Below, piece by piece: positions 14,514-33,328 of a DNA stretch of 33,328 nucleotides; position 1 is the stretch's first letter; each line of letters starts with the position of its first letter. The DNA comes from an uncultured virus (IMG/VR IMGVR_UViG_3300020564_000003) (taxonomy: Duplodnaviria > Heunggongvirae > Uroviricota > Caudoviricetes). The position numbers and the translations under genes are program-made. Below the pieces are notes generated by a model. It had not been told where the DNA came from and did not search any database. It worked only from the letters and a program-made list of their open reading frames with translations. The stretch lies in IMG/VR virus record IMGVR_UViG_3300020564_000003. One strand, written 5' to 3'.

Positions 14514-15008
14514 ATTAACATACTCGTATCACTAGACGGCGTACTAAGTTCGGACTCTGGGGAACCAATCCGTGCAGGAGTGGCGCTTTACTACGCCCTA
14601 AACATCAACAACCGTGTTGCCATTATGACTTCTCGCAAAGAAGCAGATGCTAAGCAATGGTTACAGTCGCACGGAATCATTAACTACGACGACTTGATTG
14701 ACTCTTCTTTTGAGCTGGCAGGTGAGGACCTAAAGAAGAGACAGTTCGTTATCTCTCGTTCCAGAGCTCCGATTGAGATGTATGTAGATGCTGACCCAAC
14801 TATGTGTGCTTGGGTGTTTGAAGAACAACGAGTTCCAGCAATCCTCTTTAGCCACCCTAATTTTGCAGCCGTTGAGAACCGACCAGATGCTCCAAAGAAG
14901 GTACGACGCTGGTCAGATATTGAAGAGGCTATTAACAAAGTCAACATCGCACGTTCAGAACAAGCTCAAAGACCAAAAGATACAGTGGCTGAACTCTGGT
15001 CTGATTGA
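14514..15008 (+). CDS. HAD-fold protein (degenerate motif I), probable ATT start
   Basis: In-frame extension INILVSLDGVL (motif I-like), IMTSR (motif II), K, MYVDAD (motif IV). Confidence 0.6.
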   Translation: MNILVSLDGVLSSDSGEPIRAGVALYYALNINNRVAIMTSRKEADAKQWLQSHGIINYDDLIDSSFELAGEDLKKRQFVISRSRAPIEMYVDADPTMCAWVFEEQRVPAILFSHPNFAAVENRPDAPKKVRRWSDIEEAINKVNIARSEQAQRPKDTVAELWSD

Positions 15009-18833: not shown

Positions 18834-19223
18834 TTACTTCTTGCCTTTAGGCTGTTTGTTACTAGCCGCTGCAGAACGTGCTTGTTTCCTTGCTTTCTGT
18901 GCTGCTTTACGAGCAGCGGTTGTATCTTCTTTTGCTTTTGCTTCTCCTTTTGCAGCTTTGTCTGCTTTTGCTCTTGCTTTCTCTTCTGCAAAAGGGCGAG
19001 TCTTATCTCTAATGACTGTAATAATCTTCTTTGGGTGAGGAGTGGTAATCACTTTAATTACGTGGTCAATATTGTCTGGGTCACGGTCTTCGTGAAGGAT
19101 ATTTCCATTTTCTTGTGTTGTTTGACGACCACTCTTTACTACATTTGAAGCAAGGCGATAGTCTACATCTCGTTCAAAAGAACGGTCTCCTGCGTGGTAT
19201 GAAGTGGCTAATGGAAGTGACAT
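18834..19223 (-). CDS. Hypothetical protein, DUF4258/RelE-like N-terminus plus Lys/Ala tail
   Basis: SYHA.DR..ER.V...IITV pattern; TATCCT -10 lies 7 nt before ATG (leaderless). Confidence 0.5.
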   Translation of the reverse strand: MSLPLATSYHAGDRSFERDVDYRLASNVVKSGRQTTQENGNILHEDRDPDNIDHVIKVITTPHPKKIITVIRDKTRPFAEEKARAKADKAAKGEAKAKEDTTAARKAAQKARKQARSAAASNKQPKGKK

Positions 19224-19242
19224 AAGTACAAGGATAAAGAAA

Positions 19243-19264
19243 AAGCCCTGATTTCTCAGGGCTT
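19243..19264 (-). terminator. Intrinsic terminator
   Basis: Minus strand AAGCCCTGA-GAAA-TCAGGGCTT followed by T-tract. Confidence 0.8.
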
Positions 19265-19268
19265 ATTC

Positions 19269-19427
19269 TTACTTACTTAAAATCCGTTTGGCTTCATTAG
19301 CCTTAATGCTCATAAATCCAGTCTTTCTTGGATTCATACTTCCAGGCTTCTTATAACCTTCGCCTTTAGGCATATTTGCAATTCTGGTTGCTAATGCTGC
19401 TGCAACCTTGTCGTGATGCTTTGCCAT
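19269..19427 (-). CDS. 52-aa basic protein (absent from the ORF track)
   Basis: MAKHHDKVAAALATRIANMPKGEGYKKPGSMNPRKTGFMSIKANEAKRILSK; SD AGGGGG, TACACT -10, own terminator. Confidence 0.7.
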   Translation of the reverse strand: MAKHHDKVAAALATRIANMPKGEGYKKPGSMNPRKTGFMSIKANEAKRILSK

Positions 19428-19470
19428 TTACTACCCCCTTTCCTTCTCTGAGTGTAACACAAAAAGAAAA

Positions 19471-19490
19471 CCCCCTCATTTCTGAGGGGG
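19471..19490 (-). terminator. Intrinsic terminator
   Basis: Minus strand CCCCCTCA-GAAA-TGAGGGGG followed by TTTTCTTTTT. Confidence 0.8.
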
Positions 19491-19551
19491 CTTCCATTAT
19501 GCGCCTGCTTTTGCTATGGCTTTTGCTTTTTGCTTTGGCTACGACTTATGC

Positions 19552-20076
19552 TTAAGAAGGGAACTTCTTTAACCAACGCTTTACAACGTCAGTCTCTGTT
19601 CCTTTCCACGCGCTCCAGTCTTTACCTCCACCGCTCATAAAATAAGCGATTTGGGCATTTACCACAGGGTTGAACAGTTCAGCATTTGAAGCCAAATTGA
19701 ACTTATCCCTTCTTGCATCTCCCAATGAACCAATCATATTGATTTGGAATAGACCGTAGGAGTTGTCTCCTGTCTTACGATTACCGTTGTGAGATAGAGG
19801 GCTACCGTGTGATTCTTTCATCGCAATAGCCCACGCTTCTTTAAGGTCTTGACCTTTGAAGCCTACGGCTTGCAGTAACTCAACTAACTGAGGGTCAGTT
19901 AAATCATCTGCATTGACATACTTGGAAAGTACATCTTCTTGCGTTTCTTGCTCTACTGCTTGTGCTTCGGCTTTTTCTGGACTAAGGGCTGGTGGTAAAA
20001 CCACCATTCCTAAAGCCAAAAACATCGCTGTAAACAACGACCCAAACACAATCTTTCCTTTTGTTGTTAGTTTCAT
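19552..20076 (-). CDS. Secreted/membrane-anchored lytic transglycosylase (SLT/Rpf-like)
   Basis: N-terminal hydrophobic signal, catalytic AMKES, YGLFQIN, NPVVNA..A, WSAW; SD GGAG. Confidence 0.85.
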   Translation of the reverse strand: MKLTTKGKIVFGSLFTAMFLALGMVVLPPALSPEKAEAQAVEQETQEDVLSKYVNADDLTDPQLVELLQAVGFKGQDLKEAWAIAMKESHGSPLSHNGNRKTGDNSYGLFQINMIGSLGDARRDKFNLASNAELFNPVVNAQIAYFMSGGGKDWSAWKGTETDVVKRWLKKFPS

Positions 20077-20078
20077 AA

Positions 20079-21446
20079 TCACTCCAAATAGTCATTCACA
20101 ACCTCGGCTGCGTTTGACTGCTGGTGGCGGATACGATGCAGGTATCTCTCCGTAGTTACGATTGACTGGTGACCTAACCGCTCTTTGACCTCGTGCACAT
20201 CTACCCCGTTCTTTAACAACTGGGTAGCGTTAGCGTGCCGTAGGTCGTGAGTGGTTGGATACCAACCAATCCCTGACTTGTTGATGGCTTCGTTCCAAAT
20301 GGCTCGCCACTTGTCACGAGGTAGGTGTCCGTCGCTTTTGCTAAGGCTTTTGCTATGGCTTTTGCTAAGGCTTTCGCTTTTGCTATGGCTTTTGCTATGG
20401 CTTTCGCTTTTGCTAAGGCTTTCTACCTTGCCCTTTCCCTTGTCCTTTCTATAGTGATTGCGGTACTCCCTGACCGCTTCCTTACATACCTGACACCTAC
20501 AACCGCCCACATTGTACGAATACGCTGTTGCGTGTTGGAATGTCCTGCTTCCAATGGTGTAAGGCTTCCCTACTACGCTTGTGGTAGGGCTTTCTATTTT
20601 ACTCCTCTTCTCAACCAGGTGCTTTGAGAAGAGCAGGTCTTCTTTTGCTAAGGCTTTTGCCTTTACAAACTTCTTTATCTCTGCTACTAGAGCTGAGCTC
20701 AGAACAACAGTTCGTTTGTTGCCGTTTTTTGTTGCTGGAACAACAAGAAATCTTGTCCCCTCGGACTTTGTCCCTGCGGGCTGGTATGCGTAGCCAACAT
20801 CTGAAACTGTGCGCCTGACATAGACTTCTTTGGATTGGAAGTTAAAGTCTTTGACTCTGAGTTCTGTGGCTTCCCCATAACGGCAGCCAGAGGCTATGAG
20901 AAACTGGGCTAAAAGAACGCTTCCGTCTGTGGGTAAGTTCTTTAAGATAGCCTGAAAGTCTTTAGGCTCTAGGGTGTAGGTGGGGTCAGGCTTGGGCGTG
21001 CTTAGTCTTATGCGGTGGGTTGGGTTTGTGGCTATTGCGTCATCATCAACGGCGAGCCTGAATAAAGAACCTAAAGAAGTCTTTAGGTGTGAGAGTGTGC
21101 TTGGGCTAACCCCTTTGCTTGCGAGGTTATCCAACAATGCCTTAATGTCTTTCTTGGTAATTGCGGAGATGCGCTTAGAACCTAAAGAAGGTTGGGCATA
21201 CTTCTTTAGCAGGGTGATGTAGTTCTTACGGGTGATTACTCTGATGTCGGGTGAAAGTGCTAATTGCTCTAAGTAAGTGTTGAATGTCTTTTGGTTTTCG
21301 GGCATTAGATTAAACTCGCCTTCTTCGGCAAGTAATCCAGCGTTAAGTGCTTTAGCCCTAGATGAGTAAGTGCCTACGGATTTGACTTTTCCGTCTTGGC
21401 GGTAATAGGCGGTAAATCGCCCTTTGCGTTTGATTGCGTAAGCCAT
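20079..21446 (-). CDS. int: Tyrosine recombinase/integrase with inserted Zn-finger and repeat
   Basis: SGCRYGE (R), TKNG (K), HDLRH, LGH, TERY (Y); SAM-like N-domain; TAGGGT -10 lies 6 nt before ATG. Confidence 0.92.
   Translation of the reverse strand: MAYAIKRKGRFTAYYRQDGKVKSVGTYSSRAKALNAGLLAEEGEFNLMPENQKTFNTYLEQLALSPDIRVITRKNYITLLKKYAQPSLGSKRISAITKKDIKALLDNLASKGVSPSTLSHLKTSLGSLFRLAVDDDAIATNPTHRIRLSTPKPDPTYTLEPKDFQAILKNLPTDGSVLLAQFLIASGCRYGEATELRVKDFNFQSKEVYVRRTVSDVGYAYQPAGTKSEGTRFLVVPATKNGNKRTVVLSSALVAEIKKFVKAKALAKEDLLFSKHLVEKRSKIESPTTSVVGKPYTIGSRTFQHATAYSYNVGGCRCQVCKEAVREYRNHYRKDKGKGKVESLSKSESHSKSHSKSESLSKSHSKSLSKSDGHLPRDKWRAIWNEAINKSGIGWYPTTHDLRHANATQLLKNGVDVHEVKERLGHQSIVTTERYLHRIRHQQSNAAEVVNDYLE
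20334..20423. repeat. Tandem array of GCTTTTGCTAWG (x6) and GCTTTC (x3) inside the integrase
   Basis: Read directly; encodes ES/LSKS/HSKS repeats. Confidence 0.95.
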
Positions 21447-21483
21447 AAGGACACCCTACCAGCGAGTAACTTATGGCGCAAAA

Positions 21484-21523
21484 AAAGGGGGATAGGTTGC
21501 CAGTTGGCAATCTATCCCCCTTT
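21484..21523 (-). terminator. Long-stem intrinsic terminator between the HNH gene and the integrase
   Basis: AAAGGGGGATAGGTTGCCA/TGGCAATCTATCCCCCTTT; T-tract on the minus strand. Confidence 0.85.
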
Positions 21524-21526
21524 AGT

Positions 21527-22120
21527 TTATTTTCTTTTTGTATCTTCTTTTGCGAGCCTGTGTATCCAAGTGTTGCGTTCAGCGTGTGTTTTCTTGCGGT
21601 GGTGATTGGAACATAACACTACACACTTAGCAAGTTCCTTCTTTAGCAAGTTCATACTTACACCTTTGGCTATTCCGTTGCTAATGTCAAACTTCTTTGA
21701 GTGTATGTGGTCAAACTCCAACATCTCTACATCAGTTTCACCGCATACTTTACAAGGGTGTTTCTTCTTGTAGTTATAGACGAACAACCTTATCTCTTGG
21801 TTCTTAGTTAAATGATTGTTCTTTTGTCTTTCACTTACACAAGGCTTACATACTCCGCTTCGTGTTGCTTGGCGGTTTTGTCTTTTAGCAAGTTGGAAAG
21901 AAGATAAGGCTTTCTTCTTACCGCACTTGCTACATTGTCTTTTGCCTTGTGACTCCAACGCTAATCGTTTTGCCGTTCTATCAGCAGAACCTTTGCGTTG
22001 AATTGCTTGGCACGACTTACACCTTGCTCGTCTGCCGTATGAACCTTGCGGAAACTTGTTAAACCTTGCTAGTGGTAGTGCCTCGTAACAACCAATACAG
22101 GTCTTAGTTCTTTGTGCTAT
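21527..22120 (-). CDS. HNH endonuclease with N-terminal Zn-finger repeats (probable ATA start)
   Basis: CKVCGE...LEFDH...KCVVLCSNHH; frame extends upstream of TTG 21958 through CIGC...CKSC. Confidence 0.8.
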   Translation of the reverse strand: MAQRTKTCIGCYEALPLARFNKFPQGSYGRRARCKSCQAIQRKGSADRTAKRLALESQGKRQCSKCGKKKALSSFQLAKRQNRQATRSGVCKPCVSERQKNNHLTKNQEIRLFVYNYKKKHPCKVCGETDVEMLEFDHIHSKKFDISNGIAKGVSMNLLKKELAKCVVLCSNHHRKKTHAERNTWIHRLAKEDTKRK

Positions 22121-22295
22121 TTGTTTTGTCCCTTCGGGCTTGGCTTGTTAAGTGCCACTTACCGCAGATTTCGCATTTGTAAGTAGCACAAGGTTTCTTT
22201 CTATTGTTATTTAGCCAATGATTTTTCCAAATCAAAGACATAGCCTTTTCTGCTTTGTATTTAGTTGGGTAAGCAGTTTTCTCTTGGCACTTCAT
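22104..22295 (-). CDS. Small phage Zn-finger protein
   Basis: C..K.AY.T...A...YKCEICGKWHLTS; ATGA coupling. Confidence 0.75.
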   Translation of the reverse strand: MKCQEKTAYPTKYKAEKAMSLIWKNHWLNNNRKKPCATYKCEICGKWHLTSQARRDKTNSTKN

Positions 22296-22456
22296 ACCCC
22301 AGTTACTTTTCTTACGCAGTTGTAACAGAACCACATCACAACTTCTTTAGCACCCATAATGTCTTTGCCATTTGCTCGGACACCTTGTTGGTTACAGTTA
22401 TCGCAGACCCATAGTTCATCTGCTTCTGTAATCTTACGAACGAATAGTGTTCCCAT
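22292..22456 (-). CDS. 54-aa Zn-ribbon protein (absent from the ORF track)
   Basis: MGTLFVRKITEADELWVCDNCNQQG...MWFCYNCVRKVTGV; SD AAGGAG, coupled at both ends. Confidence 0.7.
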   Translation of the reverse strand: MGTLFVRKITEADELWVCDNCNQQGVRANGKDIMGAKEVVMWFCYNCVRKVTGV

Positions 22457-22608
22457 TACTTCTTTCTCCTTTCATCTCTTAGTGCTACTTGAAGGATACG
22501 AACCTTCTTTTGTAACTGAATGTTCTCTTTCCAAAACAATCCCATTACTGAGAGAGAGCCAACGAGAGCGATAATCATTCCTATCATTGTTCCTGTGTCT
22601 AGTACCAT
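22456..22608 (-). CDS. 50-aa membrane protein (absent from the ORF track)
   Basis: MVLDTGTMIGMIIALVGSLSVMGLFWKENIQLQKK...; SD AAGGGA; TAATG coupling. Confidence 0.7.
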   Translation of the reverse strand: MVLDTGTMIGMIIALVGSLSVMGLFWKENIQLQKKVRILQVALRDERRKK

Positions 22609-22611
22609 TTT

Positions 22612-22800
22612 TTATTCCCTTTCTGTAACTTCGGATACAACCTTCAACACATAAGTTTTATCGTTGAGGTCTTGGTCTATCATCTGTGTCTTTGCTTTAC
22701 CCACAATAACTTCCCACAAGTTGTTAGCGGTGTGTTCGTCATTGTCTATCGTTACCGCAATCGCGGTAGTTAGTTCTACTTTGTACGACTTAATTGCCAT
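22612..22800 (-). CDS. Hypothetical protein
   Basis: ATG 22800 follows the upstream stop with SD GAAGGG. Confidence 0.6.
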   Translation of the reverse strand: MAIKSYKVELTTAIAVTIDNDEHTANNLWEVIVGKAKTQMIDQDLNDKTYVLKVVSEVTERE

Positions 22801-22807
22801 TCTTCTT

Positions 22808-23029
22808 TTACCCTTCCCATAGTGTTTCATCATCATAAACAAAACCACTTTCAACCTCAATACATCTTTCGCACCAAGTTTTAGTTTTGTATTGTCTTTT
22901 ATCTTTTGCTATCCAACCAGAGCCACTTCTTACGAACCAACTCCATTTGTTGTTGTCTATCTTCTTTATCCGAAACAGGTCGTCTTTTGTTTGATAGACA
23001 CCACTAGAAACCTGATACATCTTTAACAT
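22808..23029 (-). CDS. Hypothetical protein
   Basis: SD AAGGAG before ATG 23029. Confidence 0.65.
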   Translation of the reverse strand: MLKMYQVSSGVYQTKDDLFRIKKIDNNKWSWFVRSGSGWIAKDKRQYKTKTWCERCIEVESGFVYDDETLWEG

Positions 23030-23621
23030 TTGTTTCTCCTTCCCATAAAGAAACTTCTTGTTCATCATCTTTTGCTAAACAATCTTCGCAAAGGTTCGGT
23101 GTTTTATCTCCGTAGCACTCCACTTGGTCATAACACTCAGCGCAGTAGTGGTGACTACCCATTAAGTATTCAAGTCTTTCGCAACCTGCGCTACTTGTAT
23201 CACCGCTTTCGTCACTAATAAGTTCTCCTTTTTTATACGATTGTTCGCCCCAGTAGTCGCTACCAGTTTCATAGAAAGTATAAGTAAAAGAAAGTTTCTT
23301 AAACTCTTTTGCGAGTGCTTCAACCACAGGTACAACAGGTGACCAAGCACTCTCAAAAGAATAAACAATTACTTTGTCTTCTACTGACCCATCAAAGCGA
23401 ACCTCATTCAAGTCCCACTTGCTTCCCCAGTTAGCGACATTCCATTCGTACCAATTTGCTTCTTGGTCAATAGGTCTTGGGATAACTCTGTGGCAAGAGA
23501 AGATTGACTCAGAATGAGTTTCTGTTGCTTCTGACTTAGTAATCTCAACTTTCTTTATTAGTTTAGAAAGTTCTTTAGGACTACCTTCTATTGTTAATTC
23601 GTTACTACACCAGTTCGGCAT
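23004..23621 (-). CDS. DUF1281/YubB ferredoxin-like family protein with C-terminal Zn finger
   Basis: MPNWCSN.L.I.G, WYEWN..NWGSKWD, F.SAWSP; CAEC...CEDC. Confidence 0.8.
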   Translation of the reverse strand: MPNWCSNELTIEGSPKELSKLIKKVEITKSEATETHSESIFSCHRVIPRPIDQEANWYEWNVANWGSKWDLNEVRFDGSVEDKVIVYSFESAWSPVVPVVEALAKEFKKLSFTYTFYETGSDYWGEQSYKKGELISDESGDTSSAGCERLEYLMGSHHYCAECYDQVECYGDKTPNLCEDCLAKDDEQEVSLWEGETNVKDVSGF

Positions 23622-24261
23622 TTCCTTCTCCTTCTATCTTTCGGTTAGTTAGTTTTCTGTATGAACGCGAAGTTCCGTTGCTTGTTGTGTATCCGTAACG
23701 CACTAAACGAAACGCCAGCGCACTATGAGTAACCCCAAGTTCTTTTGCTATGCGATAACCCGATACGCCACTCTCCATTAGTTCATAGATAAGTCGTGTA
23801 TAAAGTTCTGCTTCTTCACGATTAGATTTACCTTTGCCTCTAACCATAAACGCTTTAGGTTGAAGTTCTTTTAGTTGCGCTATCACCTGTGGGTCAGGCT
23901 TTACACGCTTTACTCTTTCAACAAAGAGTTCTATTACAGGCGGTGTAACAATAGGTAAGTGCTTCACCTTTGCTAATAATTCACCAGTAGGTTCTTTTAG
24001 TCCGTAAAGACGAACGGACTCTCTTGTTATGTGTAGTGGTGTTGCCAAAGATTGAAGTGTCCAACCTGCTTTGCGTAACTCAAACACATACGCTCTGCGT
24101 TCATCTAGTGGCAAGCCAATAAGAATGTCTGAAACTTCTTTTGGCAAAGTTAAATCTGATTTAGGCACTCTAGTACCAACCAAGATTTGTTCTTTCTCTT
24201 GTTTCATTCCTTTAGTTAGTCGCTTAGATTTTGTCCCTGCGGAATTAGTTTCTAGGTTCAA
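23605..24261 (-). CDS. Double helix-turn-helix DNA-binding protein
   Basis: GWTLQSLATPLHITRESVR and GVSGYRIAKELGVTHSALAFRL; TTG start with SD AAGGAG. Confidence 0.7.
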   Translation of the reverse strand: MNLETNSAGTKSKRLTKGMKQEKEQILVGTRVPKSDLTLPKEVSDILIGLPLDERRAYVFELRKAGWTLQSLATPLHITRESVRLYGLKEPTGELLAKVKHLPIVTPPVIELFVERVKRVKPDPQVIAQLKELQPKAFMVRGKGKSNREEAELYTRLIYELMESGVSGYRIAKELGVTHSALAFRLVRYGYTTSNGTSRSYRKLTNRKIEGEGNAELV

Positions 24262-24682
24262 CGCATACTCCTTTGTTAGTCATTGTTGTTAGTCGTTCTT
24301 GTAGTTTCACTACTTGTTCAGCAAACGCTTCCCTTGCGTAGTTGTGATAGTGGTCAGGGATTTGGTCAATTACTAATTGACTTAGGTTGTGAAAGGTGTC
24401 TGTTCTGTATCGCAAACCTTTATCTTTCCTAAAGCCACGAACCTCTATTGAATAAAGATTGACCCAATCGTGTTCGGGGCGAGCATAGTTTTGATAACAG
24501 ATTTTCTCTAATCTAAACTTCTTTATCACACCTGTTGATTGGTAACTTCCGTTTCTCCATTCTGTTTCTTCAATGTCAATGATTATCTGCTCACTATCTT
24601 TTAGTGTCACATAACAATAAAAAGAAAGATTGCCACTTACATTTATACTTGTTTCTTTTTGTATCTCTAGTTGTGTTGTCAT
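24245..24682 (-). CDS. Hypothetical protein
   Basis: 145-aa ORF, SD AAGGA. Confidence 0.7.
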   Translation of the reverse strand: MTTQLEIQKETSINVSGNLSFYCYVTLKDSEQIIIDIEETEWRNGSYQSTGVIKKFRLEKICYQNYARPEHDWVNLYSIEVRGFRKDKGLRYRTDTFHNLSQLVIDQIPDHYHNYAREAFAEQVVKLQERLTTMTNKGVCVEPRN

Positions 24683-24686
24683 TTAT

Positions 24687-25013
24687 TTATTCCTTATCCC
24701 ATAGGTCTGTATCTTCTTTTGCTTCAACAACTTTGTTGATTATGTGTTCGTACTTGGTTCTTGTTTCATCTCTTAGTTCATCATTGAACCTATCCCATAC
24801 ATAGTCAGCACTATCAACGCTAGACATAACATCATCAAGAAACTCATTGTTAATAAGTTCTTTATTTAGTTCAATAGGGTTGCCGTCACTATCTGTGTAG
24901 TCGGTATCTTGAATGATGTCTATTAACTCATTCTTATCAACCCAAATTGCCCAAATCTTATCGTCTTGGTTAAGCGCAGAGAGAATGTGGATAATTTCTT
25001 TTACTGTTCTCAT
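24687..25013 (-). CDS. Acidic hypothetical protein
   Basis: ATG 25013 after the upstream stop. Confidence 0.7.
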   Translation of the reverse strand: MRTVKEIIHILSALNQDDKIWAIWVDKNELIDIIQDTDYTDSDGNPIELNKELINNEFLDDVMSSVDSADYVWDRFNDELRDETRTKYEHIINKVVEAKEDTDLWDKE

Positions 25014-25018
25014 TGTTC

Positions 25019-25330
25019 CTATTCCGTATCCCATAGTTGTTCTTCCGTTGTACCTGCTAAATAAGTTTCCATAAAGTCAGCAATAAATAATTCTGTTGCT
25101 TCATTTGTTGAGTTCATTTTGTTTTCTAATACACCACGAATACTTGCGCCTAACATTTGGTCGTGTGCTTGAACACTAAAGTTTTTGGCAACATAGTCCC
25201 ACTCGTTATCAGTTAGTAATCGTTCTTCCGTATCTAACGCCTTGAAACATTCTTTATCCCATAGCGCAACAACTAACTGTGTATCAGGTTCATACTTCTT
25301 TAGTAGTTCTTTTAATTCAGATACTTTCAT
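25019..25330 (-). CDS. Acidic hypothetical protein
   Basis: MKVSELKELLKKY N-terminus; SD AAGGA. Confidence 0.7.
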   Translation of the reverse strand: MKVSELKELLKKYEPDTQLVVALWDKECFKALDTEERLLTDNEWDYVAKNFSVQAHDQMLGASIRGVLENKMNSTNEATELFIADFMETYLAGTTEEQLWDTE

Positions 25331-25344
25331 TTCCCATTCCTTTC

Positions 25345-26052
25345 TTAGTGATACTTCTTGGCACAAATCGGTCCGATACCACCAGCAACAGATTTCAATA
25401 CTGTTAATGTCTTGCCACAATGAACACAGATACCAACTTGTGCCGAATACTTAATAGCAAGTTCTAGTGTTAAGCGGTCTGTTGTATCTAACTTGTAGAG
25501 AACACCAAACTCCTTATCGTTGCGTACATACCTCTTAGCAACATCAGAGTAAGTCCAAACACTCCAACGCTTTGTTTCAGAGTTCTGTCGGATTGAATAA
25601 ACAACTCCGTCAAGTATGTAAGCACCAACCTCTGTAATCTTCATTGGCGGTGTAACTTCTTTAGCAAACTTTAGTGCGTTGATAATCTCAGACACATCTT
25701 TGCGGTCTAGTTCTTCTAAAGAAGATACTTTGCGATTGTGTAGATAGTGATTGAGAGTTTCAGTACCGCCCTCTTTCTTTTTGATTAGTGAGTTCGCAAA
25801 AGAAAGTTGCTTTTCACTAGCAGAGTTAATGACTCCTGCTTTGTTAGGTAGCGCAAGTAACTTAGTGATTAGTTCTCCAGCACCTTGAACATTGAGTGTT
25901 GTGACATCTACATCTACAAAAGAATGTGCTTTTGTTTCTAGTAATGTCTTTATGAATTGTTGTTGTCTATCACTTGCGTATCGCACTTGGTACTCTCCGT
26001 ATCCATTTGCGCCTCTTGAACCGCCTGTGCGGTGTGTAGATAGTGTTGTCAT
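25345..26052 (-). CDS. DUF6011-type Zn-finger protein with two ASxxQ repeats
   Basis: C-terminal CVHCGKTLT...S...GIGPICA; ASDRQ/ASEKQ modules. Confidence 0.75.
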   Translation of the reverse strand: MTTLSTHRTGGSRGANGYGEYQVRYASDRQQQFIKTLLETKAHSFVDVDVTTLNVQGAGELITKLLALPNKAGVINSASEKQLSFANSLIKKKEGGTETLNHYLHNRKVSSLEELDRKDVSEIINALKFAKEVTPPMKITEVGAYILDGVVYSIRQNSETKRWSVWTYSDVAKRYVRNDKEFGVLYKLDTTDRLTLELAIKYSAQVGICVHCGKTLTVLKSVAGGIGPICAKKYH

Positions 26053-26450
26053 TCTTCGTTCTCCTTATCTTCTTTTGTCCCCTCGGACTCTTGTAGTAGT
26101 CGGTCTTGTTCATCTTGTTGTTGTGATTGCCAGTTAATTACTTCTAGTGTAATTTCTTTTTTGATTGCTCTTACTTCTTTAGCAGTTACTTGAACACACT
26201 TAACTACTTCATACAATTCTGCTTTTGCTTGGTTGTTCCAAGTTTTACAATACTTCTTGGCGTTGTGTTCTGTCGCAGAGAAAGATGAGTTGATACAACC
26301 CCACTCATTTAGTTCTTTTGTTAGAACACAATAGAAGTAATCTTTGTATGCGCTACCGCGTATCACTCTGTACCCCTTGCTATTGGTAGCAACAAAATAC
26401 TTTCGTGGTGTCTTTACATAACCTGTTCGTTCTAATAGTTCTTGACCCAT
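26049..26450 (-). CDS. Hypothetical protein
   Basis: 133-aa ORF, SD GGAG. Confidence 0.7.
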   Translation of the reverse strand: MGQELLERTGYVKTPRKYFVATNSKGYRVIRGSAYKDYFYCVLTKELNEWGCINSSFSATEHNAKKYCKTWNNQAKAELYEVVKCVQVTAKEVRAIKKEITLEVINWQSQQQDEQDRLLQESEGTKEDKENEE

Positions 26451-26451
26451 T

Positions 26452-26595
26452 TCATTCTCCGTTCTTTAGTTTTGCTTGAATGTCACTTACTTTGTGGGCA
26501 GACTCTTTGTGACCTTGTGCGTTTAAGTATTCTTTCTCCTTACCTAACGCTTCTAGTATTACTGCGAGTTCTGTATTTGTTATCTCTAGTTTCAT
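26452..26595 (-). CDS. 47-aa protein (absent from the ORF track)
   Basis: MKLEITNTELAVILEALGKEKEYLNAQGHKESAHKVSDIQAKLKNGE; TAATG coupling, fills the gap exactly. Confidence 0.65.
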   Translation of the reverse strand: MKLEITNTELAVILEALGKEKEYLNAQGHKESAHKVSDIQAKLKNGE

Positions 26596-27176
26596 TAGTA
26601 GTTTTCCTTTCCAGCGAACGCCATTTCAACTAACAACTCAAACTCTTTGAGCGATAGATTTACCTGTGCTTTGTAATCTGTTCCGTAACCGCTTGTAGTT
26701 ACTTCAACAGTTGTCTGTTCTCCTAATAGTTCTTTAGAAGTAGCAACAACAGAGTTGCGAGAGCGTTCTACTTCTTCTTCAACCTGTCGGCGTAGTTCTC
26801 GCTCTTTGCGTTGCGCTTCTTCACGCAATAGTCTTTCTGCTTCTTCTTTAGACTTCGCAGAGTTCCACTTAGGTTCAAGTACCGACCACTCGGCAACAAC
26901 ATCTGCTAGGCGTGAAGTCCAGTAATACTCTTTGCCATTGTTATCTACTGCTTTAACAACAATGCCAACAGAACGATTGCCTTGTTCTGCTTTCTTGAAA
27001 GAAGGTGAGTCTTTGCGATTGCTTGGTTCGTACTCGTACTTATCAAGTGAGTAAATAGTTGCTTTAACAACATCATTCTCACGCACTTGGTCTATGTCAC
27101 GACTTGCCTTTGAGTTGTATGTCCAAGAAGGAACGATTGCGTACTCGCCATTTAATTTGATTTCAGATAGTTTCAT
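26595..27176 (-). CDS. Hypothetical protein with coiled-coil segment
   Basis: 193-aa ORF, SD GGAG. Confidence 0.75.
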   Translation of the reverse strand: MKLSEIKLNGEYAIVPSWTYNSKASRDIDQVRENDVVKATIYSLDKYEYEPSNRKDSPSFKKAEQGNRSVGIVVKAVDNNGKEYYWTSRLADVVAEWSVLEPKWNSAKSKEEAERLLREEAQRKERELRRQVEEEVERSRNSVVATSKELLGEQTTVEVTTSGYGTDYKAQVNLSLKEFELLVEMAFAGKENY

Positions 27177-27205
27177 TTGTATTACTCCGTTTCGTATTTG
27201 TTATT

Positions 27206-27230
27206 GGGGGCAACCGATTTGATTGCCCCC
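27206..27230 (-). other. 10-bp intergenic stem-loop without U-tract
   Basis: Minus strand GGGGGCAATC-AAATC-GGTTGCCCCC. Confidence 0.65.
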
Positions 27231-27244
27231 ATTGTGTAACTTCT

Positions 27245-29233
27245 TTAAGCATTAACTAGATTGCGTGCGATTGCCATACGCACTAACTCTTTGCCAAGTG
27301 TGAGAATGTCTTTTGCGCTTTGTATTGAAGTCATTAACTCAAAACTATGGCGGTAGTTATCTAAGTCTTCTGCGGTGTGTTGGTAGTGCGAGATAAGTGC
27401 CTGACAAGTAAGAACACCTGCGTTCTTCATCTCACTTACTGCTTTCTCGCCTTCATCTGTATTCCACGCGCCGTCAGTAATCATAAACAAAACCTTTATT
27501 GCTTTATCACTTTCAGCGAGAACACGCTTCGCATAAAGTAATCCGCTTTCAGGATTTGTTCCGCCGTCAGCACCAGCGTCACGAATTGTTGTACCTGCTT
27601 TTTCATCAGCACCATAAAGAAGATTGGTGCGACTATCAAAAGTAACAACAGTTGTTCGTGCTTCTACTCGTTCAAGTGCCTTCTTGATTGCCCACATAGA
27701 CTTGTAAGCGTTGTCAGCATTACGACCACTCATTGACCCACTTCGGTCTAAAAGAATAACCGCTTCAATACTTACAACATCATCACGACCCTCACTCCAT
27801 TCATCAAACACAGTATCTAATTCGTCACCGCGTAAGTAACGACCTGCGTTTAACTTTCCTGAACGCTCACCATTTAACCAAGCAGGGTCATACTCTGCTT
27901 GTAAGCGTTCAAGTTCAACACCAAACTTCTTTGCGAGCAAAGTAAGTTCGTCAGGAATACGCACTTCGTTGTATTGCGCTTTGTCAGGTGTCTTAGCGTT
28001 GCCACCAACAAGTTCTGTATCAACACCGAGTTGCTTTGCTATGTCGTTGATACCTTTACTAACTTCTTTAACAACATCAGAAAGAATGTCGCTAAGTAAA
28101 TCAGTTACTTGCTTGTTGCTACCTGTTCTACCTGCTTCTTTGCCGATACCCTTGCCACCTTCTTTTGGTGTTGTTGGTTCAACATCAACATCATCAAAAT
28201 CATCAAAGTCAAAATCAAAATCATCATCAAAAGAATTATCTTTTGGTTGTGATTGTGATTGTGATTGTGATTGTGATTGTGATTGTGATTGTGGTTGTGA
28301 TTGTGAATTAGTGTCTGCGGATTTTGTCCCCTCGGACACATCTTCTTTTGGTGTTGTATCTATAACTACTTCAACAACATTCTTTTGTGCGTTCTTCTTA
28401 GCACGCTCTTGTTCTTCTTTAGTCGCAGGGCGTACAGAAGAAGACTCATAGCCTTGTGTTGGTCTGCCTTCGTGTCCGTTAGGGTTCTTGATACGGATAG
28501 TAATTGTTGTGCCTTCACCTTCACCGCTTTGTGGTGATTGTGGAAGGGCAGGTAACTCACTAAGTAGTTCAGCAAACTTCTTAATAAGATTGAAACCAAC
28601 TTCAACATTCTCATTACCAACAAAAGTTAGTGAGATGTATTGGTCAATAACATCTGCGAGTTCTTGTTGTAGTTCAGGCTTTATGAAGTTGTCACTTGCT
28701 AGTTGTCGCAACTCAACAGGTAAATACTTGCGACCATACACAAGTGGGAACGCACGACTAATTGCTTGTTCATCAGCAAGTAAGTAATCGCACATAGTTG
28801 CGACAAGCCACGCTTTTGTAGAAGGCAACCAACCAGTTAGAAGTAACTCAATGCGTGAGTCTTCTAAACAATTAAAGGCTTCCCACAATTCGTTCTGTTG
28901 TTGTTCATCTTTAATAAGTTGAACAAGGCGTGAGCCGTTGCGTGGAGTAAATCGCAAGTGTGCTAATTCGTGGAACGCGAGTCCGTTGTAACTAGCGATT
29001 GCGTTCGGTGTGAAGTCATCTTTGATGTGAGCAACATTCAACCAAACTTCTTTTGTTGATGAATACGCAGGTGCGCCAATGTCTTTTCTATCAACAACAT
29101 TCACACTAATTTTGTGAGTTGTTAATACTGAAAGTGTTTTGCTAAAGACACTTGCTAACGCACCAACACGCTTGCGCTTTAGTGCTTCTTTCTTTTCTGC
29201 TTCTGCTTGTTGTTCTATAAAGAAGGTACTCAT
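27245..29233 (-). CDS. CobT-like VWA-domain protein with HExxH N-terminal domain
   Basis: FHELAH, N.LED.RIE, acidic linker, MIDAS DRSGSM, GGT, ITDG. Confidence 0.88.
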   Translation of the reverse strand: MSTFFIEQQAEAEKKEALKRKRVGALASVFSKTLSVLTTHKISVNVVDRKDIGAPAYSSTKEVWLNVAHIKDDFTPNAIASYNGLAFHELAHLRFTPRNGSRLVQLIKDEQQQNELWEAFNCLEDSRIELLLTGWLPSTKAWLVATMCDYLLADEQAISRAFPLVYGRKYLPVELRQLASDNFIKPELQQELADVIDQYISLTFVGNENVEVGFNLIKKFAELLSELPALPQSPQSGEGEGTTITIRIKNPNGHEGRPTQGYESSSVRPATKEEQERAKKNAQKNVVEVVIDTTPKEDVSEGTKSADTNSQSQPQSQSQSQSQSQSQSQPKDNSFDDDFDFDFDDFDDVDVEPTTPKEGGKGIGKEAGRTGSNKQVTDLLSDILSDVVKEVSKGINDIAKQLGVDTELVGGNAKTPDKAQYNEVRIPDELTLLAKKFGVELERLQAEYDPAWLNGERSGKLNAGRYLRGDELDTVFDEWSEGRDDVVSIEAVILLDRSGSMSGRNADNAYKSMWAIKKALERVEARTTVVTFDSRTNLLYGADEKAGTTIRDAGADGGTNPESGLLYAKRVLAESDKAIKVLFMITDGAWNTDEGEKAVSEMKNAGVLTCQALISHYQHTAEDLDNYRHSFELMTSIQSAKDILTLGKELVRMAIARNLVNA
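28247..28306. repeat. (TTGTGA)x10 hexamer microsatellite encoding an (SQ)n linker
   Basis: Nine perfect units and one TTGTGG. Confidence 0.95.
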
Positions 29234-30588
29234 TACTCACTCACCTTTCCGATAAGTTCTAGTTCCAAGTTGTGTCGTTGAGAGTCCAAAAGAAGTTTCA
29301 CACTAGAGCGTTCATCTTCTCTGAAGTTATTAACAAAGTTATCAACCGCAAAGTCATAACTTAGGTTCTGTGCTAAATCAACAAACTGCTTTAGCAAACG
29401 AGTTGATACAGGGGTTTCATAAACACCTGCGATTGTGTCGGCACGCATTGACTTCGCAAGTTCCAACAAAGTGTTAGAAGGAATAAACTTCTTTTCAATG
29501 TCGGTGTCGTACTCAAAGTTCAACTTAATCCAAAAGCGGTCAGCGAACGCTTCGTTAAACTTAGAAGTACCTTTGTAGCCGTCGTTGTAACACATAGCGA
29601 TAAGTAAGTTTTCATTCGCCGTAATTACTTCGCCGTCGTGTTCTAGCAAAGTTAAAACTCTGCGGTCGTCAAGCACTCCGTGAAGAACGCTTGCGATTTT
29701 TTGTGGAAGAAAGTTCGCTTCGTCAATTACTAACACGCCACCATTACGAAAGAAGTGTGTAAATAATCCGTCACGCCATACCAACTTACCTTCTTCATTT
29801 GGAACATAGCGACCAAAGAATTGTGAAGGCTCTACACCTGCGTTACAACTCATTGAACCAAACTCCAAACCATTCTTTGCGGAGAATGTCATTAAAGAAG
29901 TTGTCTTACCTGTACCTGCGTGACCTTGAATAGATACATTCTTCTTTGACTTCAATGCGTATGTATAAAGTTGGTCTTCACTTAATCCACCAGCAAACTT
30001 GCGTGGCACATAAGTTCTTACCGCTTCACTTGTTAAAGAAGGTACGAACGCAAGTGTGCGTTCGTTGTCGTTGCGTTCTACTTTGTTAATCACTATCGCT
30101 TCGTTAGCGATTGGATTTATTGTGTTGCGTACTGTCACAGGCTTTGTCCCCTCGGTCTTAGTTGTTGCGTGCTTATCGCTTCTGCCGTCAGAGCGATACT
30201 TACTTAGTAGTGTTGGGTCTTGTTCAATTAGTAACTGAACCTCATCAACAACACTTTGGATAGTGCGTGTTGTATCTATTGTTAGATTGCGTAAGCGATA
30301 CTGCTTTGTGAGTTTCTGTATTAGAACATTTGGTATCTCGTTGTTGTTAAGTGCTACTACATCAACGCTTGTCAATGGTGTTGATAACACTTCACCAATT
30401 AAGTTGTAATCAAGTGTGCCGATTGAGTTGTGTTCATCTAACTCTCGCGCACTCCAAGAATTACTTTCGCCACGACCACCATTTGTAACTCTCATAAAGG
30501 TATGAGTGTTGCCGTTATGACTTGCGATAATTACTTGCTTTGTAGTTGTTGGATTAACTTGCCCTGAGATTAGAATTGCGTATGTCAT
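29233..30588 (-). CDS. MoxR/CobS-like AAA+ ATPase
   Basis: Walker A GHAGTGKT, Walker B LVIDEAN, N.GY.G...NEAFADRF, STR; coupled to the VWA gene. Confidence 0.9.
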   Translation of the reverse strand: MTYAILISGQVNPTTTKQVIIASHNGNTHTFMRVTNGGRGESNSWSARELDEHNSIGTLDYNLIGEVLSTPLTSVDVVALNNNEIPNVLIQKLTKQYRLRNLTIDTTRTIQSVVDEVQLLIEQDPTLLSKYRSDGRSDKHATTKTEGTKPVTVRNTINPIANEAIVINKVERNDNERTLAFVPSLTSEAVRTYVPRKFAGGLSEDQLYTYALKSKKNVSIQGHAGTGKTTSLMTFSAKNGLEFGSMSCNAGVEPSQFFGRYVPNEEGKLVWRDGLFTHFFRNGGVLVIDEANFLPQKIASVLHGVLDDRRVLTLLEHDGEVITANENLLIAMCYNDGYKGTSKFNEAFADRFWIKLNFEYDTDIEKKFIPSNTLLELAKSMRADTIAGVYETPVSTRLLKQFVDLAQNLSYDFAVDNFVNNFREDERSSVKLLLDSQRHNLELELIGKVSE

Positions 30589-30612
30589 TTGGTTTTCCGT
30601 TTCTATTAGTTG

Positions 30613-30873
30613 TTAGTTGTTTATGTCGGTGTCTAGTTGGAACATCTCGTATAGCGATTTAACTTCATCAAACTTCTCACTAGCAGAACCGCACACATTG
30701 TCGGCTAGTAAAAGAAGTTTCTTTCTATCTACAATCTCACTTAGTAGTTGTAACCCTGCCGATAACACATCTTCTTTATCGTGTTCAGGATTTAAGAATT
30801 GAATTGCGATTAGCATTGAAGTAATTAGTTGTTCGTTGCTTGGGTGATTATCTTTAGTGATTTTTATTCGCAT
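30613..30873 (-). CDS. Hypothetical protein
   Basis: SD AAGGAG; 86 aa. Confidence 0.7.
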   Translation of the reverse strand: MRIKITKDNHPSNEQLITSMLIAIQFLNPEHDKEDVLSAGLQLLSEIVDRKKLLLLADNVCGSASEKFDEVKSLYEMFQLDTDINN

Positions 30874-31008
30874 TTATTTATTCTCCTTATCTAAACAAGT
30901 TGGACAAAAGAACACATACTTTCCAAGACGAGAACCCTTGTAGAAGTAAGGATTTAATTTACATACATCACACTTAGCGTTGATTGTTGCCATAGTTTCT
31001 TTCGCCAT
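30874..31008 (-). CDS. 44-aa Zn-ribbon protein (absent from the ORF track)
   Basis: MAKETMATINAKCDVCKLNPYFYKGSRLGKYVFFCPTCLDKENK; SD AAGGAG. Confidence 0.7.
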   Translation of the reverse strand: MAKETMATINAKCDVCKLNPYFYKGSRLGKYVFFCPTCLDKENK

Positions 31009-31122
31009 TTATTTATTCTCCTTTTTATTCAGTAACGATACGAGTTGGAAGTAAGAAGTAACATCTTCATCAAAAAGAATTGTCACGCCTTGTTCATCTA
31101 TTGTTGCGGTAGGTACTGACAT
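31009..31122 (-). CDS. 37-aa protein (absent from the ORF track)
   Basis: MSVPTATIDEQGVTILFDEDVTSYFQLVSLLNKKENK; SD AAGGA, abuts both neighbours. Confidence 0.65.
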   Translation of the reverse strand: MSVPTATIDEQGVTILFDEDVTSYFQLVSLLNKKENK

Positions 31123-31299
31123 TTATTTATTCCTTTCGTAGTAGAAGTCGCACATAAGCGCACTAGCGTCTATTGACCATTCACAACTATCAGTATCAAC
31201 AACTGCGTGATAGTTGTAAAAGAAGTTAATAACTACTGTAATAAATACACCGAAGATAAAACCAACAACTAAGTGACCGCGTTTATTTAAGTGTTTCAA
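31123..31299 (-). CDS. 58-aa membrane protein (absent from the ORF track)
   Basis: TTG start overlapping the upstream TGA, SD GGAG; TM segment LVVGFIFGVFITVVINFFY. Confidence 0.65.
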   Translation of the reverse strand: MKHLNKRGHLVVGFIFGVFITVVINFFYNYHAVVDTDSCEWSIDASALMCDFYYERNK

Positions 31300-31688
31300 T
31301 TTGTGATTACTCCAGTTCCGTTTAGTAGGTGAGTGATAACTGTTTCGTAGTGATTAACAAGTGAGTTGTAATCGTTGCGTGCGTTCGCACATTCAATGTC
31401 AAAAGAAGATTGAGAGAAACGATTAGCAGGTGTAGTGCGAATTGTTTTTGCGAACAAGTCACCGAAGATAGAACCGATTGACTTCTCAACAACAAAGTTG
31501 TTATCCAACTTCTCAAAAGAAACAACAGAAACATAAGTGCGATACACCTTGCGTTCTTTGTCGTGAATAGTTGTAACATTCACGCGAAACTTATCGTTGT
31601 ATGTAATCGTCATTTTGTTTTTGCGTGGTGTATGAGTGATTAGTGAAGTGTCGGTGATTACTGGTGCGATAGTTGTTGTTGTTGTCAT
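31296..31688 (-). CDS. Hypothetical protein, first gene of the leftward arm
   Basis: 130-aa ORF; leader nearly identical to that of the AAA gene. Confidence 0.7.
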   Translation of the reverse strand: MTTTTTIAPVITDTSLITHTPRKNKMTITYNDKFRVNVTTIHDKERKVYRTYVSVVSFEKLDNNFVVEKSIGSIFGDLFAKTIRTTPANRFSQSSFDIECANARNDYNSLVNHYETVITHLLNGTGVITN

Positions 31689-32956
31689 TTGTTATTCCGT
31701 TTCTATTAGTTGTTGTTTTGTATTTGTTATTAGTGAAGTGCGCAAGTGTTAATCGCACACCGCTATTCACTAACTGTTAATAACAATTAGTGAATAGCAG
31801 AATGTAATTAAAACATTTACAAGATAGAAACAATGTCACTCAGTAATAACCATTTGAGTTTGTCGCGGTAGCGTAGTTATTACATCATTCAATTTATAGT
31901 TTCTAGTTTATTTATCGTTCGCACACTAATTAGTGTTGTGTTATGCGTTAGCGTTTTTTATACACATACGATAGATAAATAATTTTCGTTAGCGAACAAC
32001 CAAAAGAAGTTATGTAATTTATTTTGTTTTACTAAATAACGAACACAATTCGTTGCGTACAAAATAAAAAAACAAAACTAACTTTTGTTTTTTCGCTAAC
32101 CGCCTGTCCCGCGAGGGAGAGCAACTTGCTGGCGCAAGCGTATAACGGATTGGGTCAAAGGCGCAAGTACCGCCCAAACTGAGCGTGAATTGAGCGTGAG
32201 TTCGTGTCGGAATAGGGGTTGCTGTCCGAGGATTGAACAGAGAGCAACCGCGCACCAAAAGAAGAACGCCAAAGTTATTTAGTGTTATTTATTTTCAGTA
32301 ATAACAAAAGAATAAATAAAAGAATAATAATTATCGTAGCGTGTATTCCAGTAACAACTGTCAAGTAATAAAAGAATAAACAAAAGAAGATTAGTAATAG
32401 TTATTTATTGTTAGTTGTTTCTTTAACTAATTGTTAGCAGATTACAAGTGCTAATAACTATTGCGAATGAGTGGGGGTTGAAGGGGGCGTAGCCCCCTTA
32501 TACAAAAGAACAATGAGTAGTAATAAATACATAAGAGAATAAGTAATAGATAGATACAACAATGAGTGTGATGAATGAATGTATTTACATAACTATTGAA
32601 TACATAACTTGTAATAACAATGTAAATAGTTAGTGATACACAATGTATTTAGTAAGTGATTAAGTACCTGATAACAACTTGTAAAGTTGGTGTTTAGTCT
32701 GGTGGTATCCGCACAAAGATTGCGATAAAAATAAGCAGTAGCCAATAGTTATTTTCACTTGCTATCAAAACTGCTATCAAACTATTTAATTACATTAGTT
32801 TTGTGCGGAGATAGAACAATAAATACTTCTTTAAGAAACAAGTTGTGAATGTAATCGTGATAAATAAAAATCTTTTGGTACAAAAGACCCCCACAGTTAA
32901 GCGTGTTTTACGCAGGGAACCCCCAGGGCTCAGACGCGGTTGAGGGGTACAGAGTG
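31689..32956. other. 1.27-kb AT-rich non-coding region between divergent units
   Basis: No credible ORF; several palindromes, hairpins and short direct repeats. Confidence 0.7.
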
Positions 32957-32980
32957 AGGCAGTAGCCGTAATATTGGCCT
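32957..32980 (+). promoter_or_regulatory. Putative leaderless promoter AGGCAGTAGCC-N-TANTAT, copy 1
   Basis: TAATAT lies 6 nt before ATG 32981, no SD; repeated at 33307. Confidence 0.6.
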
Positions 32981-33283
32981 ATGGCTAAGGAATATGCGCT
33001 AAATGGCTTTGCAGGCCTAGTGCACCAGCGTAAGAACCCACACTCTGGCACAAAAGTCAGTGTCTATCACTCCGAGCAAGCTGGTATGGACTCCAGTGAT
33101 GGAACCAAGTATTCGGCTGTATGTGAAGACCACGGCATGATTATGGGGGTCTCATCTATCTCCGCTGCTAAATCAGCTGCAATTGACTCCCCATCGTGGT
33201 GTGATGACTGTCGTGACGCAGAAACAGCTAAATTAAAAGGGCCAAGTAACCTCTCTGCAGAACAGTTTACCTCCCATACCTAA
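32981..33283 (+). CDS. Hypothetical protein with C..H / C..C motifs
   Basis: AVCEDHG...WCDDC; 100 aa. Confidence 0.75.
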   Translation: MAKEYALNGFAGLVHQRKNPHSGTKVSVYHSEQAGMDSSDGTKYSAVCEDHGMIMGVSSISAAKSAAIDSPSWCDDCRDAETAKLKGPSNLSAEQFTSHT

Positions 33284-33306
33284 TATTTTTTTATCCAGTA
33301 ACGACT

Positions 33307-33328
33307 AGGCAGTAGCCTTACTATTAGC
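33307..33328 (+). promoter_or_regulatory. Putative leaderless promoter, copy 2
   Basis: AGGCAGTAGCCTTACTATTAGC, 19/22 identical to 32957-32978. Confidence 0.55.

Follow-up and report, generated by a model that had tools for sequence, protein, structure and literature searches.

The DNA analysed here, referred to as the window, is a stretch of 33,328 nucleotides from an uncultured virus of the Caudoviricetes (IMG/VR record IMGVR_UViG_3300020564_000003), and the element under study is an array of short, identically oriented words dispersed through unrelated genes in one arm of the phage genome. Positions 1-26215 of the window match one end of a 65-kb viral record (G001) letter for letter, and joining the two gave a sequence of 72,173 bases. 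A near-identical metagenome contig of 99,277 bases (L074) carries the same seven sites and provides 5.6 kb more past the right end of the window, so that about 21 kb of the approximately 99-kb genome lay outside the DNA that was analysed. PHROGs and Pfam searches revealed a myovirus-like phage, with tail sheath, tube, tape measure and baseplate genes in a long rightward gene set that also encodes 2OG-oxygenase paralogues, a DnaB-like helicase, a primase, PolA, a UvsX-like recombinase, WhiB, a Cas4-like exonuclease, RuvC, a TGT/DpdA-like protein and ribonucleotide reductase. The leftward arm (18834-32258; 13.4 kb) encodes an SLT lysozyme, a tyrosine integrase, an HNH endonuclease, Zn-ribbon proteins, a double-HTH protein, a DUF6011 protein, a VWA protein and an AAA_5 (CobS-like) ATPase, and it is more AT-rich than the rest of the window, with a G+C content of 0.35-0.43 beyond 22 kb compared with 0.40-0.49 in 1-19 kb. 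Since the arm contains a tyrosine integrase, the phage is probably temperate, and the presence of a WhiB gene suggests that its host is probably actinobacterial. The 23 sequencing runs that contain DNA of this phage come from lake and freshwater metagenomes; among 185,579 species genomes, none was found to contain a related prophage.

A search of the whole window with TTTGTCCCYKCGG, allowing at most one mismatch, returned seven copies, at 20752, 20767, 22125, 24230, 26074, 28323 and 30143, with a single mismatch in the copy at 20752. All seven lie inside the leftward arm and on the + strand, when only 0.07 copies were expected and none of 100 shuffled sequences reached seven. A first-pass annotation, made from the letters of the window alone, had described seven oriented copies separated by 15, 1358, 2105, 1844, 2249 and 1820 bp; each of these positions and gaps, as well as the + strand, was reproduced, and the oriented motif array is real. 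Aligning the copies gave an invariant 12-mer core, TTGTCCCNNCGG, preceded by T's, which reads CCG[AC][AG]GGGACAA[AG] on the - strand, the sense strand of the arm genes. No family members were found in 1-20.7 kb or past 30155 in the window search, and allowing two mismatches added only six matches, three on each strand, for a total of 13 when 15.3 were expected, indicating that the motif family is sharp-edged, without a halo of decayed copies.

The joined 72,173 bases contain one further exact copy, the only one in the approximately 44 kb of DNA joined on outside the arm. It lies on the opposite strand, inside a rightward open reading frame (ORF) of 958 amino acids, and is thus also on the sense strand of its gene, where it is read in the frame shared by most arm copies, as TAGTS. 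The first-pass annotation had held that equal use of both orientations would speak against an array; the counts, 7:0 in the window and 7:1 in the 72 kb, do not contradict one. This additional copy is kept in relatives in which the 958-aa protein is 76-83% identical and is missing from those in which it is 67-68% identical, and, since about 0.14 chance matches are expected in the joined DNA by our own arithmetic (10 fixed letters, 144 kb over both strands), its membership of the array is uncertain. In one locus of the latter kind (L073, from record G007; 67% identical), two exact words of the type found in the window (type A, below), at 3618-3629 (+) and 6370-6381 (-), sit upstream of the 958-aa homologue; the sense strand of a 694-aa ORF carries one of them (TAGTN), and the other runs antisense to a 144-aa ORF.

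The copies, numbered here from s7 to s1 with increasing coordinates on the + strand, are found inside genes of unrelated function, as the first-pass annotation had it. Copies s7 (CTTGTCCCCTCGG, 20752..20764) and s6 (TTTGTCCCTGCGG, 20767..20779) form a tandem pair in the interdomain linker of the integrase (aa 223-232), where the sense (-) strand of s7 reads TCCGAGGGGACAAG and encodes SEGTR, while s6 encodes PAGTK. The latter is a 15-nt (5-codon) tandem duplicate that is present in type-A phages only and that represents an insertion relative to the related locus L014; judging by the orthologous single copies in L014, L070 and L072, s7 is the ancestral member of the pair. Copy s5 (TTTGTCCCTTCGG, 22125..22137) sits where a 76-aa Zn-ribbon ORF ends and the HNH gene has its 5' edge, overlapping the stretch that serves as the HNH ribosome-binding region in L070. 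Copy s4 (TTTGTCCCTGCGG, 24230..24242) is found just past the stop of ORF 24245-24682 and 24 nt ahead of the ATG of the double-HTH gene (24207), which has its own ribosome-binding site, so that s4 belongs to an N-terminal extension of this gene or, as may be the case, to its 5' leader. The C-terminal tail of a 133-aa ORF (26049-26450) contains s3 (TTTGTCCCCTCGG, 26074..26086), and the DUF6011 gene starts 23 nt downstream of this copy, at 26052. Copy s2 (TTTGTCCCCTCGG, 28323..28335) is in a linker of the VWA protein (aa 300 of 662), with a weak second unit, TCCGCAGACACTA, coming after it on the sense strand at 28309-28321, and s1 (TTTGTCCCCTCGG, 30143..30155) is in a linker of the AAA_5 ATPase (aa 145 of 451). 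By the listed ORFs, only s4 is possibly non-coding, s3 and s5 are at the ends of short ORFs, and the other four copies are in linkers of long ORFs. Next to s2, a Gln/Ser-rich repeat in the VWA linker (28240-28310) is variable in length, with a difference of 18 nt between the window and L074; assembled contigs go back by 49-60 nt within it, and the summed contig depth spikes at 28220-28730 in X18 and X6, two of the contig sets described below.

When the tandem pair is counted as one locus, the centre-to-centre gaps between the six loci are 1371, 2105, 1844, 2249 and 1820 bp, corresponding to a coefficient of variation of 0.16. Only 0.13% of random placements in the arm were as even (P = 0.0013), and P was 1.5e-5 when the distances to the arm ends, as we defined them, were included; the same gaps are retained in the related phages of types B and C introduced below. 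The polar array along the leftward arm (7/7 copies in the arm, on one strand) and the near-regular spacing that the first-pass annotation had proposed therefore both stand, the latter being more even than chance. This even spacing, considered along with the preference for linkers and gene ends, suggests that one site is needed approximately every 2 kb and is set in the nearest tolerant spot.

Six of the seven copies read x[EA]GT[KR] in their listed ORF, in line with the peptide [STP][EA]GT[KR] that had been noted for most of them, the exception being the one at 22125, with ARRDK. A peptide motif ([STP][EA]GTK) selected as protein, for example as a protease or modification site in linkers, could account for the frame that six copies have in common and for the location of all copies in hydrophilic linkers or tails. 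The shared frame is weak evidence, since orthologous sites inherit their frame and since shifts inside genes must be multiples of three. Against such a motif, rare codons are fixed in it: GGG accounts for 13 of 137 Gly codons and TCC for 8 of 174 Ser codons in six arm genes, the motif's own codons included. The peptide was also never seen with other codons, the seven [STPA][EA]GT[KRNS] peptides found in 22,398 residues all being encoded by the motif. In addition, s5 is in a different frame from the other copies in its 76-aa ORF, s4 is possibly untranslated, and s3 moves from the end of one gene in type A to a position 35 nt into the DUF6011 gene, and into another frame, in type B. The copy in the AAA linker is displaced by two codons in L013. 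In another relative (L075, AAA linker at ~900-915), a synonymous change of ACC to ACG at s1 breaks the CCG of the word and keeps TEGTK; this single case is the sole synonymous loss that we saw. A peptide kept with free codons, which the first-pass annotation had named as an outcome that would contradict selection on DNA, was looked for in homologues, and these keep the word, or else word and peptide change together, everywhere. Altogether, these comparisons show that the constraint acts on DNA or RNA rather than on the peptide, as had been proposed on the basis of codon use, and a motif selected as protein is largely refuted and retains next to no probability.

Relatives of the phage were found using the AAA_5 protein and an alignment of its relatives as queries. 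In all those with at least 72% AAA identity, an array occupies the corresponding places, with its strand and its spacing of about 1.8-2.3 kb unchanged; what differs between them is the word. Type A, CCGNNGGGACAA, is found in the window, L074, L076, L012 and L013 (7, 7, 5, 7 and 6 sites, respectively, the L076 contig ending at s5), type B, CCGNNGTGCAAA, in L014, L015 and L072 (3, 4 and 4 sites), and type C, (CCG)AAGGAAAAAATC, in L070 and L071 (5 sites each), with 14-18 identical letters common to three type-C sites. Type D, CCGTGCTGACAAAG (short form CCGTGCTGACAAA), was seen at s1 of L016, in which the N-terminus of the AAA protein is 90% identical to that of the window, and a peptide matching type D (SVLTK) occurs at s3 in two database proteins. 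In 13 sequences of this phage group, namely the window and 12 loci of relatives, words of the four types occur exclusively on the sense strand of the arm, and no genome has sites of another type on either strand, except for an A/C-like integrase site in L014. The 55-kb record behind L072 (G012) has four type-B sites, all in the arm and none elsewhere, with a strand count of 4:0. Even the letters at the "NN" positions tend to agree within a genome, reading CT three times in L015 and AG three times in L014. No comparable array was detected in the examined loci of distant relatives (AAA identity of 46% or less), two of which (L017 and L018) have the integrase, HNH, VWA and AAA genes of the arm in common with the window.

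The word variants are thus concerted and syntenic. Concerted change at dispersed sites in unrelated genes is what would be expected of a trans-acting reader with shifting specificity, gene conversion between sites being an alternative source of such change. We therefore consider it very likely that the copies are recognition sites for a factor with lineage-specific specificity. This factor is almost certainly encoded by the phage; a conserved host reader is hard to reconcile with four different words among close relatives that come from one kind of habitat. The arm in which the words are embedded is also the fast-evolving part of the genome, its proteins being 31-84% identical between a type-A and a type-B genome, compared with 80-94% for the majority of replication-module proteins (window 1-18.7 kb) and lower values for a few.

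Gain of a site can be followed at s5, where L070 has an ordinary ribosome-binding site and the ATG of the HNH gene, and where type A has a perfect copy of its word and ATA in place of this ATG. The HNH ORF has a conserved in-frame upstream Zn-ribbon extension (21959-22146, - strand), which lacks a canonical start in type A and whose frame runs through s5. A near-word, CCGA[AG]GTGACAAG (GTGACAA core, L074 position 3648), located about 5 kb upstream of s1 in L074, L011 and L012, was rejected as an array member since it is unchanged in the type-D locus L016 and is antisense to its gene. It is the one near-word in the 5.6 kb beyond the window, which contain no copy of the array either. A separate observation comes from L092 (600-7730, + strand; AAA 33% identical), where nine same-strand copies of a 10-mer, AGGTTAACTA, spaced by 0.3-1.4 kb, precede the AAA gene; eight of the nine extend to a 17-mer, AGGTTAACTAAAGCCAC, and the first seven of the 10-letter words have no copy on the other strand. 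This word differs from that of the array and is probably a different kind of signal.

Two genes next to sites were obvious candidates for the reader. The HNH gene (21527-21958), which abuts s5, encodes a protein whose identity does not track the motif type, being 86% in the type-C locus L070 and 51% in the type-A locus L013, with only a remnant in the type-B locus L072; an HNH-less strain was seen in a contig of X18 (joint 21519->22002), and other HNH-like genes are present upstream. The double-HTH protein, which the first-pass annotation had put forward as the reader, has essentially the same recognition helices across types A, B and C, and only two of its columns are fixed-different between A and B. 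Its predicted model (pLDDT 83) is a tandem strand-plus-HTH repeat, for which there was no PDB structure match at E <= 0.001; PDB and NCBIfam sequence searches were empty, and some homologues are labelled Sigma70_r4 or HTH_11 in Pfam. Since neither protein co-varies with the motif type, neither was taken as the reader. The nucleic-acid selection, the arm-limited polar array and the even spacing of the first-pass annotation were supported, and its proposed reader was not. Across all the arm proteins, columns that are fixed-different between types A and B make up 22% of the 133-aa ORF at 26049-26450, 12% of an 86-aa ORF at 22808-23068 and at most 3% elsewhere. The 133-aa ORF was rejected, as L076 and four database proteins (P0047-50) join a B-like body with A-type sites. 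The 86-aa ORF at 22808-23068 still co-varies with the motif type, and no function emerged for it from its model (pLDDT 77), from Foldseek or from the protein atlas. A second 86-aa ORF (30613-30873), which encodes an acidic, helical protein that is 81% identical in the type-D phage, was not a persuasive candidate. The reader may be encoded in the approximately 21 kb outside the analysed DNA.

Our preferred explanation, which we put forward tentatively as possible rather than probable, is that the copies are stoperator-like polar binding sites of an immunity system; protein binding, a block to transcription and the link with immunity are what we infer here. Sites would have been written into tolerant places of the arm, namely protein linkers, gene ends and leaders, about once per 2 kb, and a DNA-binding protein that belongs to an immunity or regulatory system would bind the asymmetric site of 12-14 bp as a monomer and in one orientation. 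The bound protein would act as a polar block on transcription through the arm, as do the repressors of cluster A mycobacteriophages at their stoperators, and the even spacing would have a rationale in capping the reach of stray transcripts. Switches between words A, B, C and D would then be switches of immunity type, in which the reader and its sites change together; rapid change between close relatives that are probably temperate is also how immunity specificities behave (PMC6550527, PMC9283540). In two reports (PMC9283540, PMC6550527), stoperators are described as asymmetric sites of 13 bp, 20-30 per genome, that are oriented with transcription, syntenic and bound by a monomer with two DNA-binding domains, and whose motif differs between related phages in step with the repressor. 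The stoperators of cluster A phages such as L5, Bxb1 and TipsytheTRex resemble the array in their asymmetry and length (about 13 bp), in a density of about one per 2 kb, in their orientation with transcription, in their synteny and in a consensus that varies between related temperate actinobacteriophages.

Several observations weigh against this explanation. Cluster A stoperators mostly occupy short intergenic gaps and are spread through both arms, whereas at least four of the seven copies, and six by the listed ORFs, are inside coding sequence. They number 20-30 genome-wide, whereas the array has seven evenly spaced copies limited to one 13-kb arm, and at most one site occurs in the joined rightward DNA (44 of the 72 kb), which carries replication and tail genes. 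Cluster A phages also have an operator in their early promoter, whereas the array has no promoter site, the presumed promoter region of the arm (30156-33328) being devoid of sites even at two mismatches. No repressor was found, the double-HTH protein failing to co-vary with the motif type. Furthermore, a hairpin with an 18-bp stem and with A and T runs at its flanks (21484-21523), between the end of the HNH gene and the start of the integrase gene, is likely a bidirectional terminator. It separates the integrase copies from the other five, which indicates that the array would not be one operon and would belong to at least two transcription units. Finally, contig ends and recombination junctions coincide with sites, which a passive binding site does not predict and which fits DNA cleavage better.

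These junctions were seen in the related loci and in assembled Logan contigs of 4 of the 23 runs. Two independent contigs stop 5-6 nt past a site, L016 at s1 and L076 at s5, and, among the 31 of 155 Logan contig pieces listed, ends fall inside sites at 22133 (s5) in X6 and at 24238 (s4) in X18. A contig of X18 joins 26094->26431, beside s3, and the similarity of L076 to the window restarts 11 nt ahead of s3. In L076 and P0047-50, a type-B-like body of the 133-aa ORF is fused to a type-A tail, with a junction that abuts s3, and the junction of the HNH cassette is exactly at s5. Sites are also found in local minima of identity between relatives, and, by sliding identity, relatedness does not switch there in clean blocks. 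The junctions hint at sites where recombination is favoured or DNA is cut, in a setting where linkers and gene ends tolerate junctions anyway.

The main rival, which we judge unlikely while taking it seriously, is accordingly that the words are programmed single-strand nick or cleavage sites, like those of tf/LUZ24-like, phiKMV-like and T5-like phages, where a putative phage nickase would cut one strand at each copy, in virion or replicating DNA, and the flanks would be prone to recombine. In the tf report (PMC3517423), nick sites have a short asymmetric consensus, 5'-TACT/RTGMC-3', occur on one strand only and cluster in one half of the genome (11 of 14); relatives of tf have sites at similar positions with a variant consensus, which its authors read as co-evolution of nickase and sites. 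This form matches the array closely, and the nick sites of all three phage groups (PMC3517423, 10.1101/619015) are like the array in being short in consensus, clustered and kept at similar positions with a changed consensus; they are on one strand only, as is the array in the window (7:0), though the count in the joined 72 kb is 7:1, with an odd copy that may be a chance match. The contig ends at s1, s4 and s5, the exchanged gene body and the X18 joint beside s3, the HNH cassette junction at s5 and the faster divergence of the arm than of the replication module between types A and B are in line with cutting. Against it, the adjacent HNH protein is not the specificity determinant, the sole copy outside the arm is on the other strand, the known nick systems lack even spacing, going by the tf positions in PMC3517423, and nothing obvious would drive rapid switching of nickase specificity between relatives that are 80-90% identical. 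The array also differs from these systems in being known from sequence alone, in its even spacing and in having four words among close relatives; it spans about a tenth (9.4 kb) of a genome of about 99 kb, and its carrier is a probably temperate, myovirus-like freshwater phage rather than a podovirus or a T5-like phage. Much of the same evidence bears on a less probable explanation, according to which the words are signals for recombination or module exchange, with co-infecting relatives swapping segments of about 2 kb through the UvsX-like protein, the Cas4-like exonuclease, RuvC or a site-specific enzyme. Junctions at or beside s1, s3 and s5, the position of sites in identity minima and the presence of UvsX-like, Cas4-like and RuvC-like proteins speak for it. 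Relatedness does not switch cleanly at the sites, however, and linkers and gene ends would host junctions in any case; free exchange should mix types, which is not seen in these almost homogeneous genomes; a stretch of 12-16 nt offers little length for homologous exchange, and the site lacks dyad symmetry of the kind used by recombinase dimers. We thus give exchange signals little chance.

A signal at the level of messenger RNA, such as a processing site, a translational-operator target or a region of internal translation initiation, has an equally slim chance in our estimation. It would explain why the arm copies and the copy in the other arm are all on the sense strand, why s3, s4 and s5 are 8-24 nt upstream of gene starts, why the s5 word derives from the HNH ribosome-binding region and why s1 is followed by an in-frame ATG at equal distance in L012 and L013. 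Start codons are nevertheless placed inconsistently between copies, with no in-frame start for s2, s6 and s7, and variants such as GCTGTGC are not Shine-Dalgarno-like, so that the idea of an internal start or Shine-Dalgarno element was rejected. A small GTCC/GGAC hairpin was rejected as well: its arms pair in only three of the seven copies, no hairpin is conserved, and a terminator-like scan flags only 28325-28338. No copy matches an Rfam family, and one copy in G007 is antisense to its gene. Still less probable is a word read by the host (Chi-like, uptake-like or translocase-orienting) or a replication signal (primase or fork sites) for the inverted arm. The polarity of the words, their restriction to the inverted arm and a spacing near the size of Okazaki fragments are in its favour, whereas a word of 12-14 nt is longer than the known Chi, KOPS and primase words and would be missing from the rest of the genome. 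DNA uptake sequences and Chi are also words found inside genes, with a frame bias to harmless peptides and, for Chi, polarity; unlike the array, they are host-wide and shorter, and they do not vary by lineage inside a single phage group. Promoters of single-subunit phage RNA polymerases (T7, T3, SP6) have one orientation, a spacing of about 2 kb and a sequence that co-varies with the polymerase, and thereby resemble the array in orientation, spacing and variation between relatives; they are unlike it in that the array word is 12-14 nt long and that four copies are well inside genes. A PHROGs scan of 74 ORFs from the window and the joined 72 kb, outside which some 21 kb of the genome fell, detected no RNA polymerase family.

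Three further features of the genome were noted. The hairpin at 21484-21523 adjoins the integrase gene, and the neighbourhood of attP may be of interest there. A 502-aa protein encoded at 15005-16513 (+) matches the PHROG phrog_887, 'queuine tRNA-ribosyltransferase' (E 1e-60), with no NCBIfam match; in other phages, TGT/DpdA-like genes accompany 7-deazaguanine DNA modification. In G001, at window coordinates of approximately -37.8 to -31.3 kb (L009, L010), at least six paralogous genes for 2OG-Fe(II) oxygenase-like proteins (218-251 aa) follow one another, with two phrog_7084 genes interleaved and a FabG-like reductase gene after them.

To our knowledge, polar multi-copy DNA words in phages come in few forms, namely stoperators, nick sites and polymerase promoters, and we know of no purpose established for phage nick sites after decades. 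Literature on nick sites, stoperators and freshwater actinophages gave no description of the array, the word itself and the name of the phage group not having been searched. Its embedding in coding sequence at linkers, its even spacing, the concerted switch between at least four words and its restriction to one arm are features that known systems do not combine. There is also a small chance, below that of nick sites in general, that the array word is the address of a phage-encoded strand-specific cutting system, which would make a break about every 2 kb in the host-interaction and lysogeny arm only. If so, the arm would consist of exchangeable, fast-evolving cassettes of about 2 kb, and the lineage addresses A to D would make exchange, or the exclusion of competitors, lineage-specific; such a built-in device for module shuffling or hypervariation would be one not described for phages. 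More generally, if the sites are cut rather than bound, programmed nicks would be linked to modular exchange. The carriers are abundant uncultured freshwater phages, in which immunity and recombination are not yet open to bench study, and the concerted variants provide a direct handle on the reader through the association of alleles with motif type.

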